A DNA stretch of 6,270 bases, counting the filler, from Candidatus Nezhaarchaeota archaeon WYZ-LMO8 (GTDB lineage: Archaea > Thermoproteota > Methanomethylicia > Nezhaarchaeales > WYZ-LMO8): the NCBI GenBank assembly GCA_004347965.1. It is 2 parts of 2 records of this genome, joined end to end, with 100 filler letters (N's around TTAATTAATTAA, not from the genome) between each part and the next. Parts side by side here need not be neighbours in the genome. Positions count along the whole stretch, not along the records: positions 1 to 3,136 come from QNVF01000077.1; 1 more part is not named here. One strand, 5' to 3'. The position numbers were made by a program, and so were the translations under genes. The notes below the pieces were generated by a model. It saw nothing but the letters and a program-made list of their open reading frames with translations. It was not told the origin of the DNA and ran no database searches. Positions 1-4,974 of the stretch are shown piece after piece. Position 1 is the first letter of the stretch, and every line of letters starts with the position of its first letter.

Positions 1-1313
1 CTTACAGCTAGTTTATCGAAGTACTTAACGTATATAGCGTAAAGTATTACTCCTCTCAAGTACACGTCAACAAACATGGAGATCCATGCGCCAACTACTC
101 CAATGAACTTAGTTAGAATTGATGTAGGCACCACTCTGAATAAGTATAGTCCAATAGCGCTAATTAATAATGGTACAATAGTGTTCCCAGCTCCTCTTAA
201 AGCTCCGCTAAAGCTCATTGCTAGCGCTAAGCCTGCTTCACTTAAGCCAGCTAAAACTAAGTAGAGTGATGCAAGTTCCAGTACCTCTTGATCTACAGAG
301 AACGGTTTAACGAGAATCTTAGATAATGTTGCTGCAGCAATCCCTAGAAGGAACATAGTTACTACAGCTAGCTTAGCTATCTCTAGACCAACTACCTTCC
401 CCTCCTTAAATTCCCCTGCGCCAATTCTTTCACCAACATATGATGAAGCAACTACAGAGAAGGCGAAGCCAGGCATGTATATGAAGCTCTCTATCCTTAA
501 CCCTATTTGATGAGCTGCCAGTGCTTTAGCGCCGCACCTAGCGATAAAAGCTGCATAGGCATTATTGCCGATTGACATTAAGAGCCTTTCAATGAATGCA
601 GGCAAGCCTACTTTGAATACATTCACTGCTTTAAGAGAGTGGAGCTCAAGGATTGGCGAAAGCTTGAGTTTACGTATGAAGATTATTTCCAGAGGAATCA
701 TGAGTGTCTCTGAAAGCACTGTAGCCAATGCAGCTCCTCTTACACCGAGAGGTGGGAGATTAAATGAACCGTATATTAATAGAGGATCTAGCACTATGTT
801 AGTTAAGGCACTTGATGAAACTACGATCATTGAGTACTTAGTTGCTTTAACAGCTCTAACGGCTGAGTCCATTATTAAGGCTACTGCTATCAATGGCAAT
901 CCAATGACTCTCACCCTAAAGTACTCTATTGCTTCACTAAGTAACTCTAAGTTTTCACTACTGACTAAGAGTAAAACCACGTGAGGGGCGGCCGTGAATG
1001 CAGCTATTGCTATGAAGCATATAGCTATTGAGCCGTAGAGAAGGGTTTCACCAATAGTTCTTCTAGCACTATCTAAGTCTCCCGCCCCATTGTATTGAGC
1101 TACCATCACTAAAACGCCAACCATAAATAATGAAGGGAACGACATCATGAGCCAACAGAGGTAGGATCCTGCTCCAACTGCTGCAATAGCATTAGTTCCA
1201 AGCCTTGAAACAAAGTAGGTATCTGCTATAGAGTACATGCTGTCAACTAGTTCACTAAATATGATAGGCCAAGCAGTCTTCAATACTTTCAGCTTTAATT
1301 CAGCTTTACTCAA
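1..1313 (-). CDS. MATE family multidrug/toxin efflux transporter (3' end runs off the window)
   Basis: Manual translation of both ends, in the same frame: (M)SKAELKLKVLKTAWPIIFSELVDSMYSIADTYFVSRLGTNAIAAVG... at the start and ...GVVGAWISMFVDVYLRGVILYAIYVKYFDKLAV at the window edge, about 437 codons. The 'AWP...DT.FVSRLG..AIAAVG' start and 'G..GAW' end are MATE hallmarks. Start is TTG 1313 or GTG 1325; an in-frame TGA lies at 1349-1347. Absent from the ORF track, probably because no stop is in the window. Confidence 0.92.
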   Translation of the reverse strand, partial: MSKAELKLKVLKTAWPIIFSELVDSMYSIADTYFVSRLGTNAIAAVGAGSYLCWLMMSFPSLFMVGVLVMVAQYNGAGDLDSARRTIGETLLYGSIAICFIAIAAFTAAPHVVLLLVSSENLELLSEAIEYFRVRVIGLPLIAVALIMDSAVRAVKATKYSMIVVSSSALTNIVLDPLLIYGSFNLPPLGVRGAALATVLSETLMIPLEIIFIRKLKLSPILELHSLKAVNVFKVGLPAFIERLLMSIGNNAYAAFIARCGAKALAAHQIGLRIESFIYMPGFAFSVVASSYVGERIGAGEFKEGKVVGLEIAKLAVVTMFLLGIAAATLSKILVKPFSVDQEVLELASLYLVLAGLSEAGLALAMSFSGALRGAGNTIVPLLISAIGLYLFRVVPTSILTKFIGVVGAWISMFVDVYLRGVILYAIYVKYFDKLAV

Positions 1314-1344
1314 TACCTTATACACCGTAGCTAATGGATCTCTA

Positions 1345-1490
1345 TTTCATAGAGCTACAGGGGTTCAGCTCTGATATAGGTTTATATTGGTTGATTTCAT
1401 TGCCTCATCTCTGTTCCCCCGCATTCCGCTCGGGTTTTCATCGGGCTTGGGGGCGTTCAGGGTGACCCCGGGCACCCCACATCTTGTGTA
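1345..1490 (-). ncRNA. Putative TnpB omegaRNA/reRNA scaffold plus 3' guide, overlapping the tnpB 3' end
   Basis: GC-rich, self-complementary tract after the RuvC-III codons: GGGGUG(1478-1473)/CGCCCC(1455-1450) enclosing CGGGG-UCA-CCCUG, and CCCCC(1453-1449)/GGGGG(1420-1416). This is the established location of TnpB guide RNAs. Boundaries are inferred. Confidence 0.7.
1364..1401 (-). repeat. Imperfect inverted repeat, tnpB-distal end of the element
   Basis: Minus strand reads AATGAAATCAACCAATATAAACCTATATCAGAGCTGAA, 27/38 ungapped identity to the plus strand at 2806-2843. Confidence 0.7.
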
Positions 1491-2588
1491 CCTGTAGAAC
1501 AGGTTTATGCATGCAACCACATCTCTATCGCCTATGAATCCACATTTAGTGCATTGTAGTGCTCTACCGCCATTATCTTTTAACCTGCTTCTACATCTCA
1601 GACATGTTGATGATGTTTTCATTGGGTTAACGTAGCTAACCATTAATCCTCTCTCGAGAGCTTCATATAATATGGTGAACTGTATCTTCCTGTAGAACCA
1701 CAGCGATAGCTTCTTGTTGAAACTGCTACCTCTATTCACGTTACTCCTGAGTTTGTTTAGGTTTTCGAGAACTATGGTTAAGCTGTGTTCATCGGCTATC
1801 TCCGCTACTCTATCACCCAGCTTGTGAGCATAGTCCCAGGCTATGCTCCTGATCCTCTCACCATGTCTTTTAATCGCTCTCCTAACACCTCTGATGAATT
1901 TCCAGGATTTAGAGTATCTTCGTTGAATCCTCTCAATCCATATCCTGTGGGTTAGGATTTTCCTAAGAGGTGTTTTGTACCGCTTCAGCTTTAGTAGCTT
2001 TCCGCTGGATGCGAACACAGCTAGTGTAACGTTGTCGAAGTTAACATCGATAGTTGTGATGGTTTTGGTTCTTCTTGATTTAACTGTTTTCCTGAAGTAT
2101 ATTGATACATAGACCTTGTCTTCAACAACCTTCACAGCTAGCTCGTAGTTACCCCAACCCCTGAACTTCTCTATCCTATCAATAGATGTTAGTAGTCTTA
2201 GCTTAACTTCTCTACCTCCATGTATTTTTAGAACAAGTGTTTTGTTCTCTAGATCCAGCTTGTAGTCGTATCTATCTATCCTAGCTGTCAATCTCCTGAG
2301 AACCGGCTTCCTACCACCGTTCTGTTTACTAGCTCTAACAACTGTTTTAGCGTAGATATATATCTGCTTAACGTGGTGTGCTCTAAAACCATACCTCTTA
2401 AGCTCTGAGTAGAACATCTTGTGTAGAGTTGTTATCGAGGGTATTTCGCTTAAACTCCACAACCTGTTTACAGCTAGCTGAACAGCATCGCGGTACAGCC
2501 TCAGGAACTCAACTAGTGCGTCATGGTCGTCGCTACCCTTGGGGAGAGCCCTCATCTTAAGAGTCTCGACGAGCTCTTCACCCTTCAT
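1365..2588 (-). CDS. tnpB: RNA-guided endonuclease TnpB (IS200/IS605 OrfB, Cas12f-related)
   Basis: RuvC-I TIDVNFDN (Asp codon 2046-2048), RuvC-II IVLENL (Glu 1764-1766), TSSTCLRC...CTKCG zinc finger, RuvC-III DRDVVACINL (1521-1529). ATG 2588 has GGTGAG 7 nt upstream (2601-2596); the alternative start is GTG 2603 (412 aa). Confidence 0.96.
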   Translation of the reverse strand: MKGEELVETLKMRALPKGSDDHDALVEFLRLYRDAVQLAVNRLWSLSEIPSITTLHKMFYSELKRYGFRAHHVKQIYIYAKTVVRASKQNGGRKPVLRRLTARIDRYDYKLDLENKTLVLKIHGGREVKLRLLTSIDRIEKFRGWGNYELAVKVVEDKVYVSIYFRKTVKSRRTKTITTIDVNFDNVTLAVFASSGKLLKLKRYKTPLRKILTHRIWIERIQRRYSKSWKFIRGVRRAIKRHGERIRSIAWDYAHKLGDRVAEIADEHSLTIVLENLNKLRSNVNRGSSFNKKLSLWFYRKIQFTILYEALERGLMVSYVNPMKTSSTCLRCRSRLKDNGGRALQCTKCGFIGDRDVVACINLFYRYTRCGVPGVTLNAPKPDENPSGMRGNRDEAMKSTNINLYQS

Positions 2589-2624
2589 CGAGTAGCTCAC
2601 CACATCTAGAACTATAGAGTTTAG

Positions 2625-2640
2625 TTTATAATCTTTTCTC
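2625..2640 (-). promoter_or_regulatory. Archaeal BRE + TATA promoter for tnpB, possibly bidirectional
   Basis: Minus strand GAGAAAAGA-TTATAAA (2640-2625), about 25 nt upstream of 2603-2600. The same bases read TTTATAAT on the plus strand, about 35 nt upstream of the small ORF. Confidence 0.55.
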
Positions 2641-2666
2641 TCCAGTATCTATATAGGTGGATATAT

Positions 2667-2810
2667 ATGGCTAGAGTTGAGCTGGTTAGGTGTAGCGTCA
2701 TTAAGTATAGGAGAGGGGACTACGTCCTCTACCCACTCGGCAAAGACAAAGAGAAGATCAAGCATCTCCACGGAAAAGAAGTATGCGTGCTAATCGTAGC
2801 AGAAGAATAA
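2667..2810 (+). CDS. 47-aa small protein, AbrB/SpoVT- or DUF2080-like putative DNA-binding protein associated with TnpB
   Basis: ATG 2667 with AGGTGG at 2655-2660. Translation MARVELVRCSVIKYRRGDYVLYPLGKDKEKIKHLHGKEVCVLIVAEE, TAA ending at 2810. The beta-beta-alpha-beta pattern with C-terminal 'GKEVxVLIV' resembles swapped-hairpin AbrB-like and DUF2080 proteins (recognised by eye, no search run). Confidence 0.7.
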   Translation: MARVELVRCSVIKYRRGDYVLYPLGKDKEKIKHLHGKEVCVLIVAEE

Positions 2811-2843
2811 CATCACCTGATACAAATCTATATGAAACCCGAA
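2806..2843 (+). repeat. Imperfect inverted repeat, small-ORF end of the element
   Basis: Plus strand reads AATAACATCACCTGATACAAATCTATATGAAACCCGAA, 27/38 ungapped identity to the reverse complement of 1364-1401. Confidence 0.7.
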
Positions 2844-2920
2844 ACAGTTGCGTTAGGCTAAAGAGTATTTAAGCAAAGCGCACTCGCTCTTGAATCCACT
2901 GTAGCCGTTGCATAGGACTT

Positions 2921-3136
2921 CTAGATTATATGGTAATATTGCTTCTTTCGCAAATCTTCAACTATGAATAAGTCAAGTCTCTCCGGCCTAGAGCGCCTGG
3001 CTTCATTCACCAGCCTTTTTAATGCTTCCTTAGCGTCTCCCAGCAATTCATTAGCTACAGCTACTACTTTACTTAACTCACTTACTGGTGTAATGAAGTC
3101 CTCTCCTTTCTTAACCATGTGGATTGCCTTTATTCC
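2921..3136 (-). CDS. Hypothetical protein, C-terminal part (5' end at the assembly linker)
   Basis: Open frame from the gap edge: GIKAIHMVKKGEDFITPVSELSK...RKKQYYHII-stop (71 aa). No recognisable family. Confidence 0.55.
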   Translation of the reverse strand, partial: GIKAIHMVKKGEDFITPVSELSKVVAVANELLGDAKEALKRLVNEARRSRPERLDLFIVEDLRKKQYYHII

Positions 3137-3236
3137 NNNNNNNNNNNNNNNNNNNNNNNNNNNNNNNNNNNNNNNNNNNNTTAATTAATTAANNNNNNNN
3201 NNNNNNNNNNNNNNNNNNNNNNNNNNNNNNNNNNNN
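3137..3236. other. Artificial 100-nt scaffold/contig linker
   Basis: 44 N + TTAATTAATTAA (stops in all six frames) + 44 N = exactly 100 nt. Confidence 0.97.
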
Positions 3237-3453: not shown

Positions 3454-4950
3454 TTAGAGCGAGGACTTAGCGTCCTCCAGCATCTTAATAGTAGCTTTCA
3501 AGCAAGTAACTTTATCTTCTTCAACAGCTCTATCTATTGATTCTGCAAGTTCTTCCCATAGGAACACGTATCTAATCCACCTTTGAAGGTAGCCTCTGAC
3601 TATGCTCTCTTCGGCAACCTCCTTGCCCACTGTTTTAAGGGCTTGCAAGACGTCTGACAGGCATCTTGCTCTATAGATCTCCTTTCCACTCCAGGTGAAA
3701 GCAAAAGCGTGTTTCTGTGTCGTCTTAACTTTCCATGCGTACTTCTCTACTTTCTCTAGGTATCTCTCTAAGACCTCTTCGTACAACGATGTTAGCAACG
3801 ACAAGTAACTGGTGTAGGCATTGAGAGGTTCCTTAAATGGGCTGAAGTATGTATGCACTTCTCCTGAAGGGCCCCTCTTAGAGGACATGTAGTAGAAGTT
3901 ATCGCTTATGCCCATGCTTCTCCAATGCCTTAAGTACTCGCCCCCAACAGCCTTTGCGTACATCCCCAATTCTTCGTATAATTCAAGAGCCTTACGCTGA
4001 AGATCTGATCCCGCCCACGCGCTCAAGTCTTTTTCTACATCTGCCCAGCTAATTGTATCCCAAGGAGGGACATCGTAGACGCCCATTGATCTATATTTAT
4101 CTGTAGCTTCACCTACTGTTAGGGTCTTTACACCTTTAGCTGCAAGTTCCCAAGGTAACCACCTAAGAAACTCAAGGATTCCCGTTTCGGGATGATGATG
4201 TTCTCCAAAGGTCTCAAAGTCCATTGCTATGAAGACTAAGTCTCCTGGACATGCTGCTATCCAATTAGCGTACTTATCTGCCGTTAGGGGGTATTGGTCC
4301 CATGCAGCATTAGAGAACCTGAAGGCTACGTCATCACTTAATCTGTAGTTTCTAAGCAACAACTTTAAGTCGCATCCATAGGCTGAGTAGACGTAATTTG
4401 GGCTACGCCATGCTAATATCCTCTCAACGCCCTCAGTTACGCAAGACTTAAACCCCATGCTCCAGAAGAGCCGCCCTATGTCATTGTTATAAATTAGCTC
4501 AGTAGCCTCAGCGGTCTTTGCCTGAAAGCCAAAAATATCCCATAAAATTTTCCTGCTTTCCTCTACCTGTTCTCTAAGCTCCTCTAAGTCTGAGAGTAGA
4601 GGAGAAACGCTGTGATAGTATGTCTGAGCTACTAGTTCGACTTTCCCAGAATCAACAATTCTGCTTACAAGATCTATTAGTTTTGGAGAGAACTTTAAAG
4701 CTTGATCAATCCATACGCCGCTCATGCTCAACGAGAGCTTGAAGTCGTATTCCTTGAGAGCTTTTGAGATTATGTTGAGTGCAGGCCAATAACACTTTGA
4801 AGAAACTCTTTTAAAGACCTCTTCGTTTAGCTGCCAGTCGTAAATAGCATCAATGCCCTTAAGAAGACGATCACGTACGCATTGAGCACTGCACGGTCTG
4901 AGCCTTATTGGCTGATGAAGCTCAAACAAGAAGACCACGCTATTAACCAT
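3454..4950 (-). CDS. Glycoside hydrolase family 57 protein (alpha-amylase type) with a C-terminal DUF5752-like extension
   Basis: GH57 conserved regions: ELHQP, VELVAQTYYHS, ATELIY (nucleophile Glu), AMDFETFGEHH (acid/base Asp), SDNFYYM. ATG 4950 (MVNSVVFLFELHQP) fits the family start better than TTG 4971; 498 aa. Confidence 0.93.
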   Translation of the reverse strand: MVNSVVFLFELHQPIRLRPCSAQCVRDRLLKGIDAIYDWQLNEEVFKRVSSKCYWPALNIISKALKEYDFKLSLSMSGVWIDQALKFSPKLIDLVSRIVDSGKVELVAQTYYHSVSPLLSDLEELREQVEESRKILWDIFGFQAKTAEATELIYNNDIGRLFWSMGFKSCVTEGVERILAWRSPNYVYSAYGCDLKLLLRNYRLSDDVAFRFSNAAWDQYPLTADKYANWIAACPGDLVFIAMDFETFGEHHHPETGILEFLRWLPWELAAKGVKTLTVGEATDKYRSMGVYDVPPWDTISWADVEKDLSAWAGSDLQRKALELYEELGMYAKAVGGEYLRHWRSMGISDNFYYMSSKRGPSGEVHTYFSPFKEPLNAYTSYLSLLTSLYEEVLERYLEKVEKYAWKVKTTQKHAFAFTWSGKEIYRARCLSDVLQALKTVGKEVAEESIVRGYLQRWIRYVFLWEELAESIDRAVEEDKVTCLKATIKMLEDAKSSL

Positions 4951-4974
4951 ATTCGTTAGCCCTACATTCAAAAT

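Follow-up and report, generated by a model that had tools for sequence, protein, structure and literature searches.

The window (the whole 6,270-nucleotide stretch of DNA analysed) comes from a 78-contig, 1.35-Mb draft genome of Candidatus Nezhaarchaeota archaeon WYZ-LMO8, and only positions 1–3136, which belong to one contig, form the true context of the transposon described here. Positions 3137–3236 are a run of N with a short linker at a contig join, and the DNA to the right of 3136, with a GH57 glycoside hydrolase gene (3454–4971) and a phosphorylase-like gene from 5044, is unrelated to that context. The first contig carries a MatE-type transporter gene on the minus strand (3–1325, identified by ORF and Pfam match), a tnpB gene encoding 412 amino acids from a GTG start (1365–2603, minus strand; Pfam PF07282, Cas12f1-like_TNB, E = 2.5e-14) and, on the plus strand, a gene for a 47-amino-acid protein (2667–2810, ATG start, TAA stop), here called the micro-gene and its product the microprotein. 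Residues encoded 5' of the first tnpB ATG are conserved in homologues (V/M/L-VSYS...), which places the tnpB start at the GTG at 2603 and sets the spacer between the two genes at 63 nt; the initial annotation was correct in describing a head-to-head pair, but not in giving the spacer as 78 nt.

Both genes lie in an insertion sequence of 1,499 bp (1360–2858). Similarity among more than 30 copies breaks off sharply at 1360 and 2858 in alignments, and contigs of several public hot-spring runs leave the window exactly at 1359/1360 and 2858/2859, which together define an element carrying only tnpB and the micro-gene. The left end, relative to tnpB (2806–2858), consists of an imperfect subterminal inverted repeat (2806–2843) and a conserved terminal block reaching 2858, and the right end (1360–1401) contains the other repeat arm (1364–1401). 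The micro-gene stop codon lies 48 nt inside the left end and the tnpB stop 5 nt inside the terminus at 1360. The arms at 1364–1401 and 2843–2806 match at 26 of 38 positions (18 of 24 in the core), and the repeat core and left terminal block are kept in both clades of the family described below. The ORF had been said to end inside the inverted repeat; the repeat is real but imperfect, and the stop codon (2808–2810) falls on its inner boundary rather than far within it. As the term "two-protein TnpB system" implied, the element carries two protein genes, and its description as a transposase-less, two-gene TnpB insertion sequence, mobile in hyperthermophilic Thermoproteota, is well supported.

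An alignment of TnpB proteins (n = 20) shows D186, E280, G358-D359-R360-D361 and the zinc-finger cysteines C334, C337, C351 and C354 to be invariant, the RuvC-III catalytic position being assigned through the DRDXN motif quoted in PMC10691335. The 3' end of tnpB overlaps a structured region on the same strand (1360–1475, minus), putatively omega-RNA-like, for which RNAalifold predicted 21 base pairs from 13 copies; two of these keep their pairing through changes on both sides in six sequences each. No match to this region was found in Rfam at E ≤ 1. The conserved RNA structure would fit a guide-RNA scaffold. One of its helices occurs in two alternative versions, C-C...G-G and G-G...C-C, each in about half of the 13 copies. 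The pairing partner of the right-end repeat in the predicted RNA is a G-rich stretch further upstream, and the repeat itself encodes the final TnpB residues (..N-L-Y-x-S).

Several derivatives of the element were observed. Contigs from three DNA runs join position 1409 straight to 2830, giving a MITE-like form with two repeat-bearing ends and neither gene, and one genome locus (L017) represents another form in which the micro-gene is kept beside 45 remaining tnpB codons. In one carrier genome (G320), 46 places match the window's TnpB, most of them only over the last 30–45 codons, that is, the right end with the omega-RNA-like region; these are solo right ends or guide-RNA-only remnants dispersed over the chromosome, far more numerous than full copies. 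Across the four carriers searched besides the window's own genome, G320 included, such places number 7–46 per genome. In the window's own genome a second, degenerate copy lies on another contig (C11) as two pieces, one from the right end (14841–14972) and one from the left end and micro-gene (16913–17007, with an in-frame TGA); 2 kb separates the pieces, which are oriented oppositely relative to each other, hence this copy is rearranged. A search for the insertion site among 10 genomes of the family of the host archaeon found matches to the flanks (900–1359 and 2859–3136) in its own genome only.

A small gene under purifying selection, linked to tnpB

The micro-gene is a clean ORF with a Shine-Dalgarno-like GGTGG (2656–2660) 6 nt 5' of its ATG, as first annotated, and its status as a gene is supported by substitution patterns, homologues and an AlphaFold2 model. 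Across the window copy and 21 genome copies, which yield 21 distinct sequences (L010, identical to the window, was omitted), dN/dS in the micro-gene frame was 0.091 (210 pairs), and a second set of 29 distinct sequences over residues 6–47 gave 0.113 (406 pairs). The two shifted sense frames scored 1.2–2.5 and the antisense frames 1.5, 0.20 and 3.0, the value of 0.20 belonging to the frame that shares the wobble position. Variable columns are concentrated at third codon positions (15, 9 and 36 of 47 at positions 1, 2 and 3, respectively). None of the 30 copies checked has a broken frame, and these include a sub-type whose N-terminus differs. An antisense ORF of 40 codons (2649–2771) was rejected as spurious because its frame is the one scoring 1.5. 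These patterns indicate that the 47-codon ORF is a real gene under strong purifying selection.

A word-indexed search of 5.8 billion proteins returned 18 homologues of 41–75 amino acids with 67–89% identity, from MAGs labelled Desulfurococcaceae, Sulfolobales, Ignisphaera, Zestosphaera, Thermofilaceae and Nezhaarchaeales. Most carry the annotation "hypothetical protein" in NCBI MAG records, so that the description of the gene as unannotated applies at most to the window's own record. HMMER searches of 1.84 billion cluster representatives, with no length filter, found 25 family proteins at E ≤ 0.001, all of 29–99 amino acids; the family therefore stands alone and is no piece of a larger protein. 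The protein had been judged too small for a transposase, and this holds: no homologue exceeds 99 amino acids, no Pfam transposase matches, and nothing points to a fragment of a longer enzyme. The concerns that homologues or selection on the frame might be absent are likewise answered, by the homologues found and by dN/dS of 0.09–0.11. No match was obtained by tblastn of the microprotein against phage and plasmid collections, the ESM Atlas returned only the microprotein's own unnamed clusters, and no paper on the 47-amino-acid family was found among open-access articles and bioRxiv preprints. One RNA run, available as contigs only, covers tnpB and the right end and leaves 2588–2699 uncovered. 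In the ORF it has just one contig, of 96 nt and from a related copy; contigs of this kind are uninformative on whether the gene is expressed or silent.

The genome collection contains 37 micro-gene loci, with up to six copies per genome. Four loci have less than 160 nt upstream and were excluded from the linkage count. Among the remaining 33, a divergent tnpB N-terminus lies 34–68 nt away in 29, most spacers being of about 60 nt. Twenty of these 29 cover at least 380 tnpB residues, three are decayed, and in six the upstream sequence is shorter than 1,350 nt (among these is L027, with about 50 tnpB codons left). The other four loci comprise L017, which keeps only the last 45 tnpB codons, and three without tnpB (L025, L043 and L046), which are remnants amid host genes such as those for reverse gyrase, CTP synthase, a radical-SAM enzyme and a PHP-domain protein. 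Replacement of TnpB by another nuclease at these three loci was ruled out, as the remnants lie between host genes and show no fusion to other nucleases. One of the genome loci, L018, has a micro-gene with 91% identity to that of the window next to a tnpB that is broken and only 47% identical over 350 residues. Either tnpB has decayed heavily there while the micro-gene stayed intact, or the element is a mosaic.

A distant subclade was recovered from metagenomes with a seven-sequence alignment as query. It comprises 233 relatives whose microproteins are about 50% identical to that of the window, and linkage was scored on the best 80 of the 233. A divergent tnpB was present in 77 of these, with nominal gaps of 59–67 nt; the other three were too short to assess, and four of the 77 had only a partial internal or C-terminal tnpB segment. 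Full-length tnpB matches in this subclade are 47–62% identical to the window's TnpB. Between the two clades, identity has fallen to about 50% for the microprotein and 55–60% for TnpB. Linkage at this distance shows that the pairing and its spacing survived deep divergence of both genes, and the association of homologues with tnpB, which the initial annotation had asked to be measured, is thus borne out at 29 of 33 genome loci and at 77 of the best 80 of 233 metagenome loci. Of 301 genomes sampled across the phylum, 15 carry the micro-gene, as do 12 of 123 genera, a patchy spread as expected for a mobile element.

Fold and family relationships of the microprotein

The microprotein is basic (pI 9.1, 10 K+R, 7 D+E), with near-invariant residues S10, I12, K13, R15, Y22, P23, L24 and V39. 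An AlphaFold2 model from a 31-sequence alignment (pLDDT 89) places strands at residues 9–13 and 19–23 and a helix at 27–34, with N- and C-terminal stretches that are modelled confidently yet remain unpaired; a family member of 49% identity was modelled with the same elements (pLDDT 77). A 47-residue chain of this beta-beta-alpha shape is unlikely to be stable alone. Foldseek searches of the PDB with the two monomer models gave nothing at E ≤ 0.001 (best E = 1.3), the weak rows including AbrB-type VapB antitoxins (E 1.3–9.8) and the designed homodimeric RIFT structures 8jvq and 8jvr. These weak neighbours are halves of cradle-loop barrels, none of them significant, and the best structural Z among 48,161 chains was 2.2. 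A swapped-hairpin or RIFT-like dimer of the cradle-loop type is a plausible candidate fold.

The initial annotation had called the protein AbrB/DUF2080-like, and as a statement of family membership this did not hold. Searches of 19 members against Pfam and NCBIfam at E ≤ 10 gave single chance matches only, with no AbrB/MazE, DUF2080 or ribbon-helix-helix (RHH) family among them; the window protein had no Pfam match at E ≤ 1, and searching PDB sequences with a profile yielded a single chance match (E = 0.5). An RHH fold is also not what was modelled, the order of elements in both modelled members being strand-strand-helix. The DUF2080 profile (PF09853) matched nothing in the window's genome or in the class (62 genomes). 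Elsewhere in the phylum it does recognise true members: five of the 301 genomes contain matches, all of them away from the present locus. Profile–profile comparison with hhalign gave a probability of 4.8–14% for DUF2080, confined to the C-terminal strand (14–17 columns) and using a profile of only eight sequences (true members from the phylum and close relatives). For 28 AbrB/MazE domains from the same class the corresponding value was 1.3%, or 4.1% with trimmed profiles. A conserved gene of a common archaeal element thus has no family name in Pfam or NCBIfam.

The protein was also said to lack an HUH motif. Read literally this is inaccurate, since residues 33–35 are H-L-H, but it holds for a catalytic HUH: homologues have Q, P or Y at position 33 and Y or R at position 35. 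Identity with a Y1 HUH transposase (TnpA, PF01797) was accordingly rejected, there being no Pfam match, no conservation of H-L-H and no homologue of more than 99 amino acids. When two microproteins were co-folded with TnpB the score was 0.02, the mark being 0.32; the verdict was no answer and counts neither way, and the design of copies plus partner is unlike the tool's calibration.

A shared intergenic region and a proposed role for the microprotein

The 63-nt region between the two start codons (2604–2666) contains a single TATA-like box, TTTATAAT (2625–2632), separated by about 23 nt from the start codon of tnpB and by about 34 nt from that of the micro-gene. Both the TATA-like block and the GGTG block next to the micro-gene are kept in both clades. 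By the usual archaeal BRE/TATA spacing, a TATA box lies around 26 nt from the start, and on this spacing one box could drive both genes; it is therefore read here as a putative promoter element. Several copies of the distant clade (loci L101–L173), L102 and L113 among them, have the TATA box inside a perfect 16-bp palindrome with A/T-rich runs on its flanks, which looks like a symmetric BRE-TATA-BRE that could fire both ways. Two operator candidates on either side of the TATA box, CTATAG (2611–2616) and CTATATAG (2649–2656), were dropped owing to their absence from the distant clade, as was a common ATATAGGT..ATAT motif (1374–1387 and 2651–2664), and intergenic alignments define no operator conserved in both clades.

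By analogy with known small regulators, the microprotein is most likely a nucleic-acid-binding regulator of its own transposon. Our more specific proposal, to which we give a probability of roughly 45%, is that it binds the 63-nt region and represses both tnpB and itself, as a non-homologous archaeal counterpart of the bacterial repressor Arc. A basic beta-beta-alpha-(beta) protein, probably too small to fold alone, would pair as a small beta-barrel dimer, and the dimer would bind nucleic acid in the form of the element's own DNA, most likely the intergenic region with its central TATA box. The one box would serve a leaderless tnpB transcript in one direction and a short-leader micro-gene transcript in the other, and the microprotein bound at this shared promoter would hold down tnpB and its own expression.

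Purifying selection on the frame, strict linkage, a mobile element with several copies per genome, sharp ends and a patchy spread, and a stand-alone family of small proteins all favour this proposal, as does the precedent of Arc (bioRxiv 10.64898/2026.09.24.754181). Against it, the structural matches are weak throughout, the searches gave no sequence relationship to a DNA-binding family and an operator common to both clades is lacking. Moreover, the micro-gene is intact at loci where tnpB has been lost (L017, L022, L025 and L027), which is unexpected if its sole job is to restrain tnpB, although these copies may simply be young. The probability left over from autorepression and the alternatives that follow belongs to functions we have not thought of.

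The strict linkage to one tnpB lineage across deep divergence could also reflect an action on the TnpB ribonucleoprotein itself, either as an inhibitor or antitoxin-like brake or as a cofactor or RNA chaperone of the omega-RNA complex at high temperature. We regard this as unlikely, though it fares best among the alternatives. The protein is basic; the designed RIFT half-barrels to which it is weakly similar bind ssRNA too (PMC11258233), and small AbrB/MazE or RHH proteins near archaeal TnpBs are proposed as antitoxins in PMC10691335. The RuvC-III D-R-D of the present TnpB is however invariant, with no Asp-to-His change, and the element is mobile, unlike the published pairs; the micro-gene also remains intact where tnpB is gone. 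Type II antitoxins use an extra tail to hold their toxins, and at 47 amino acids the microprotein has no extra tail of this type.

An accessory role in transposition, in which the microprotein binds both subterminal repeats and aids synapsis, recruits a transposase acting in trans or, in the extreme, recruits TnpB, seems somewhat more doubtful again. The same subterminal motif occurs at both ends in inverted orientation and is conserved in both clades, and its left copy begins right after the ORF stop. No transposase gene lies in the element, and Y1 TnpA (PF01797) was found in none of five carrier genomes, including the window's own, despite the multiple copies of the element, an absence that is weak evidence in draft MAGs. 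On the other hand, the serine-recombinase family PF00239 matched in four of the five carriers, and in three of them a serine recombinase is followed by a 28–30% identical tnpB in an IS607-like pair (G321:C3:50388-51975, G323:C5:17387-18968 and G320:C3:27816-29382); these recombinases could act on the element in trans. Deletion derivatives lacking both genes (the 1409–2830 joint) show that the gene is dispensable in cis, and pairing of the right-end repeat within the omega-RNA-like structure could alone explain its conservation. A bolder version, in which microprotein and TnpB form an autonomous mobile unit without a classical transposase and a homodimeric six-stranded half-barrel at both end repeats guides TnpB, or else host repair, in moving or copying it, we consider improbable; such a natural half-barrel would be of a kind that, according to the designers of the RIFT dimers, does not occur among modern single-chain DPBB/RIFT proteins. 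Finally, that the ORF is non-functional, its frame held open by DNA-level constraint on the left end or derived from a larger transposase, is scarcely credible: the ORF does lie less than 200 nt from the element end, with 48 conserved non-coding nucleotides beyond it and a degenerate, TGA-interrupted second copy in the same genome, but third-position substitutions dominate, dN/dS of about 0.1 is confined to the micro-gene frame, the frame is intact in 30 of 30 copies of two sub-types with different N-termini, and neither a longer homologue among 1.84 billion proteins nor a Pfam transposase match was found.

Comparison with known TnpB-associated systems

TnpB, ancestral to Cas12, is encoded by some of the most abundant genes of archaea, and how the expression and spread of TnpB elements are controlled is only now being worked out. 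If the microprotein is a promoter-bound repressor, it would represent an archaeal solution independent of Arc, built on a different, unclassified 47-residue fold. Together with its promoter it offers a compact test case for bidirectional promoter control in archaea, and the microprotein might serve as a natural modulator of genome editors based on thermostable TnpB.

The closest precedent is Arc, an RHH accessory repressor of bacterial IS605 elements which, according to the preprint, binds and represses a bidirectional promoter, is often divergent from tnpB and in some elements accompanies tnpB alone, with some homologues of 50 amino acids or fewer left unannotated (Moon, Zedaveinyte, Wiegand and Sternberg 2026). 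The two systems share a tiny in-element gene, often missed by annotation and divergent from tnpB across a short intergenic region. They differ in that Arc is bacterial with a beta-alpha-alpha fold, whereas the microprotein is archaeal, modelled as beta-beta-alpha with an extended tail, and has no Pfam match; repression is demonstrated for Arc and only inferred for the microprotein.

Archaeal RHH/MazE–TnpB pairs form a second point of comparison. In Altae-Tran et al. (PNAS 2023, PMC10691335), branch RIIIr-4, represented by a 361-amino-acid TnpB of Saccharolobus shibatae (SI Table S5), is non-mobile, with the RuvC-III Asp replaced by His, a small gene upstream and a long 3' untranslated region, and the small AbrB/MazE or RHH partners are proposed to be antitoxins that block guide-target binding. 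A small putative DNA-binding gene beside an archaeal tnpB is common to both systems, crenarchaeal examples included. In every feature that could be tested the present element differs: its TnpB retains the Asp, it occurs in multiple copies whose ends are sharp, its two genes are divergent and it lacks a long 3' untranslated region. The TnpB-only members of the IS200/IS605 family (IS1341-type) share with it a TnpB with RuvC and zinc finger and the lack of a transposase gene in the element.

DUF2080 proteins (PF09853), named "transposase-associated protein" by NCBI and "putative transposon-encoded protein" by JGI, resemble the microprotein as archaeal proteins of about 50 amino acids encoded beside transposase genes, with a C-terminal G-K-x-x-Y-hydrophobic strand. 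They differ in that no HMM match links the two and that the one DUF2080 neighbour which could be named is an IS66-family DDE transposase, not tnpB. At this locus (L047), in another Thermoproteota genome, the true DUF2080 gene (1025–1204) overlaps the start of the IS66-family gene on the same strand (4–1098, minus), which ties DUF2080 there to a different transposon family. AbrB/MazE/SpoVT proteins (PF04014) are likewise short and rich in beta structure, need to dimerise in order to fold and bind promoter DNA; VapB appears in the weak Foldseek rows, and by eye there is a shared succession of a strand ending in Pro, a short helix, a Gly-x turn and a hydrophobic strand. The AbrB topology ends in a C-terminal hairpin, whereas the microprotein is modelled with one C-terminal strand, has no Pfam match and reaches only 1.3–4.1% in hhalign against the 28 domains.

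In terms of shape, the microprotein may be a natural half-barrel that needs dimerisation to fold. The designed homodimeric RIFT peptides Ph1_GG and Ph1_DG (PDB 8jvr and 8jvq) dimerise and bind dsDNA, ssDNA and ssRNA with no sequence preference, and modern double-psi beta-barrels (DPBB) and RIFT barrels are described as single chains (Yagi and Tagami, Nat Commun 2024, PMC11258233). The kind of system to which the locus would belong is already known, that of transposon-encoded micro-regulators beside tnpB, and it is by analogy with these that the function of the microprotein is proposed.
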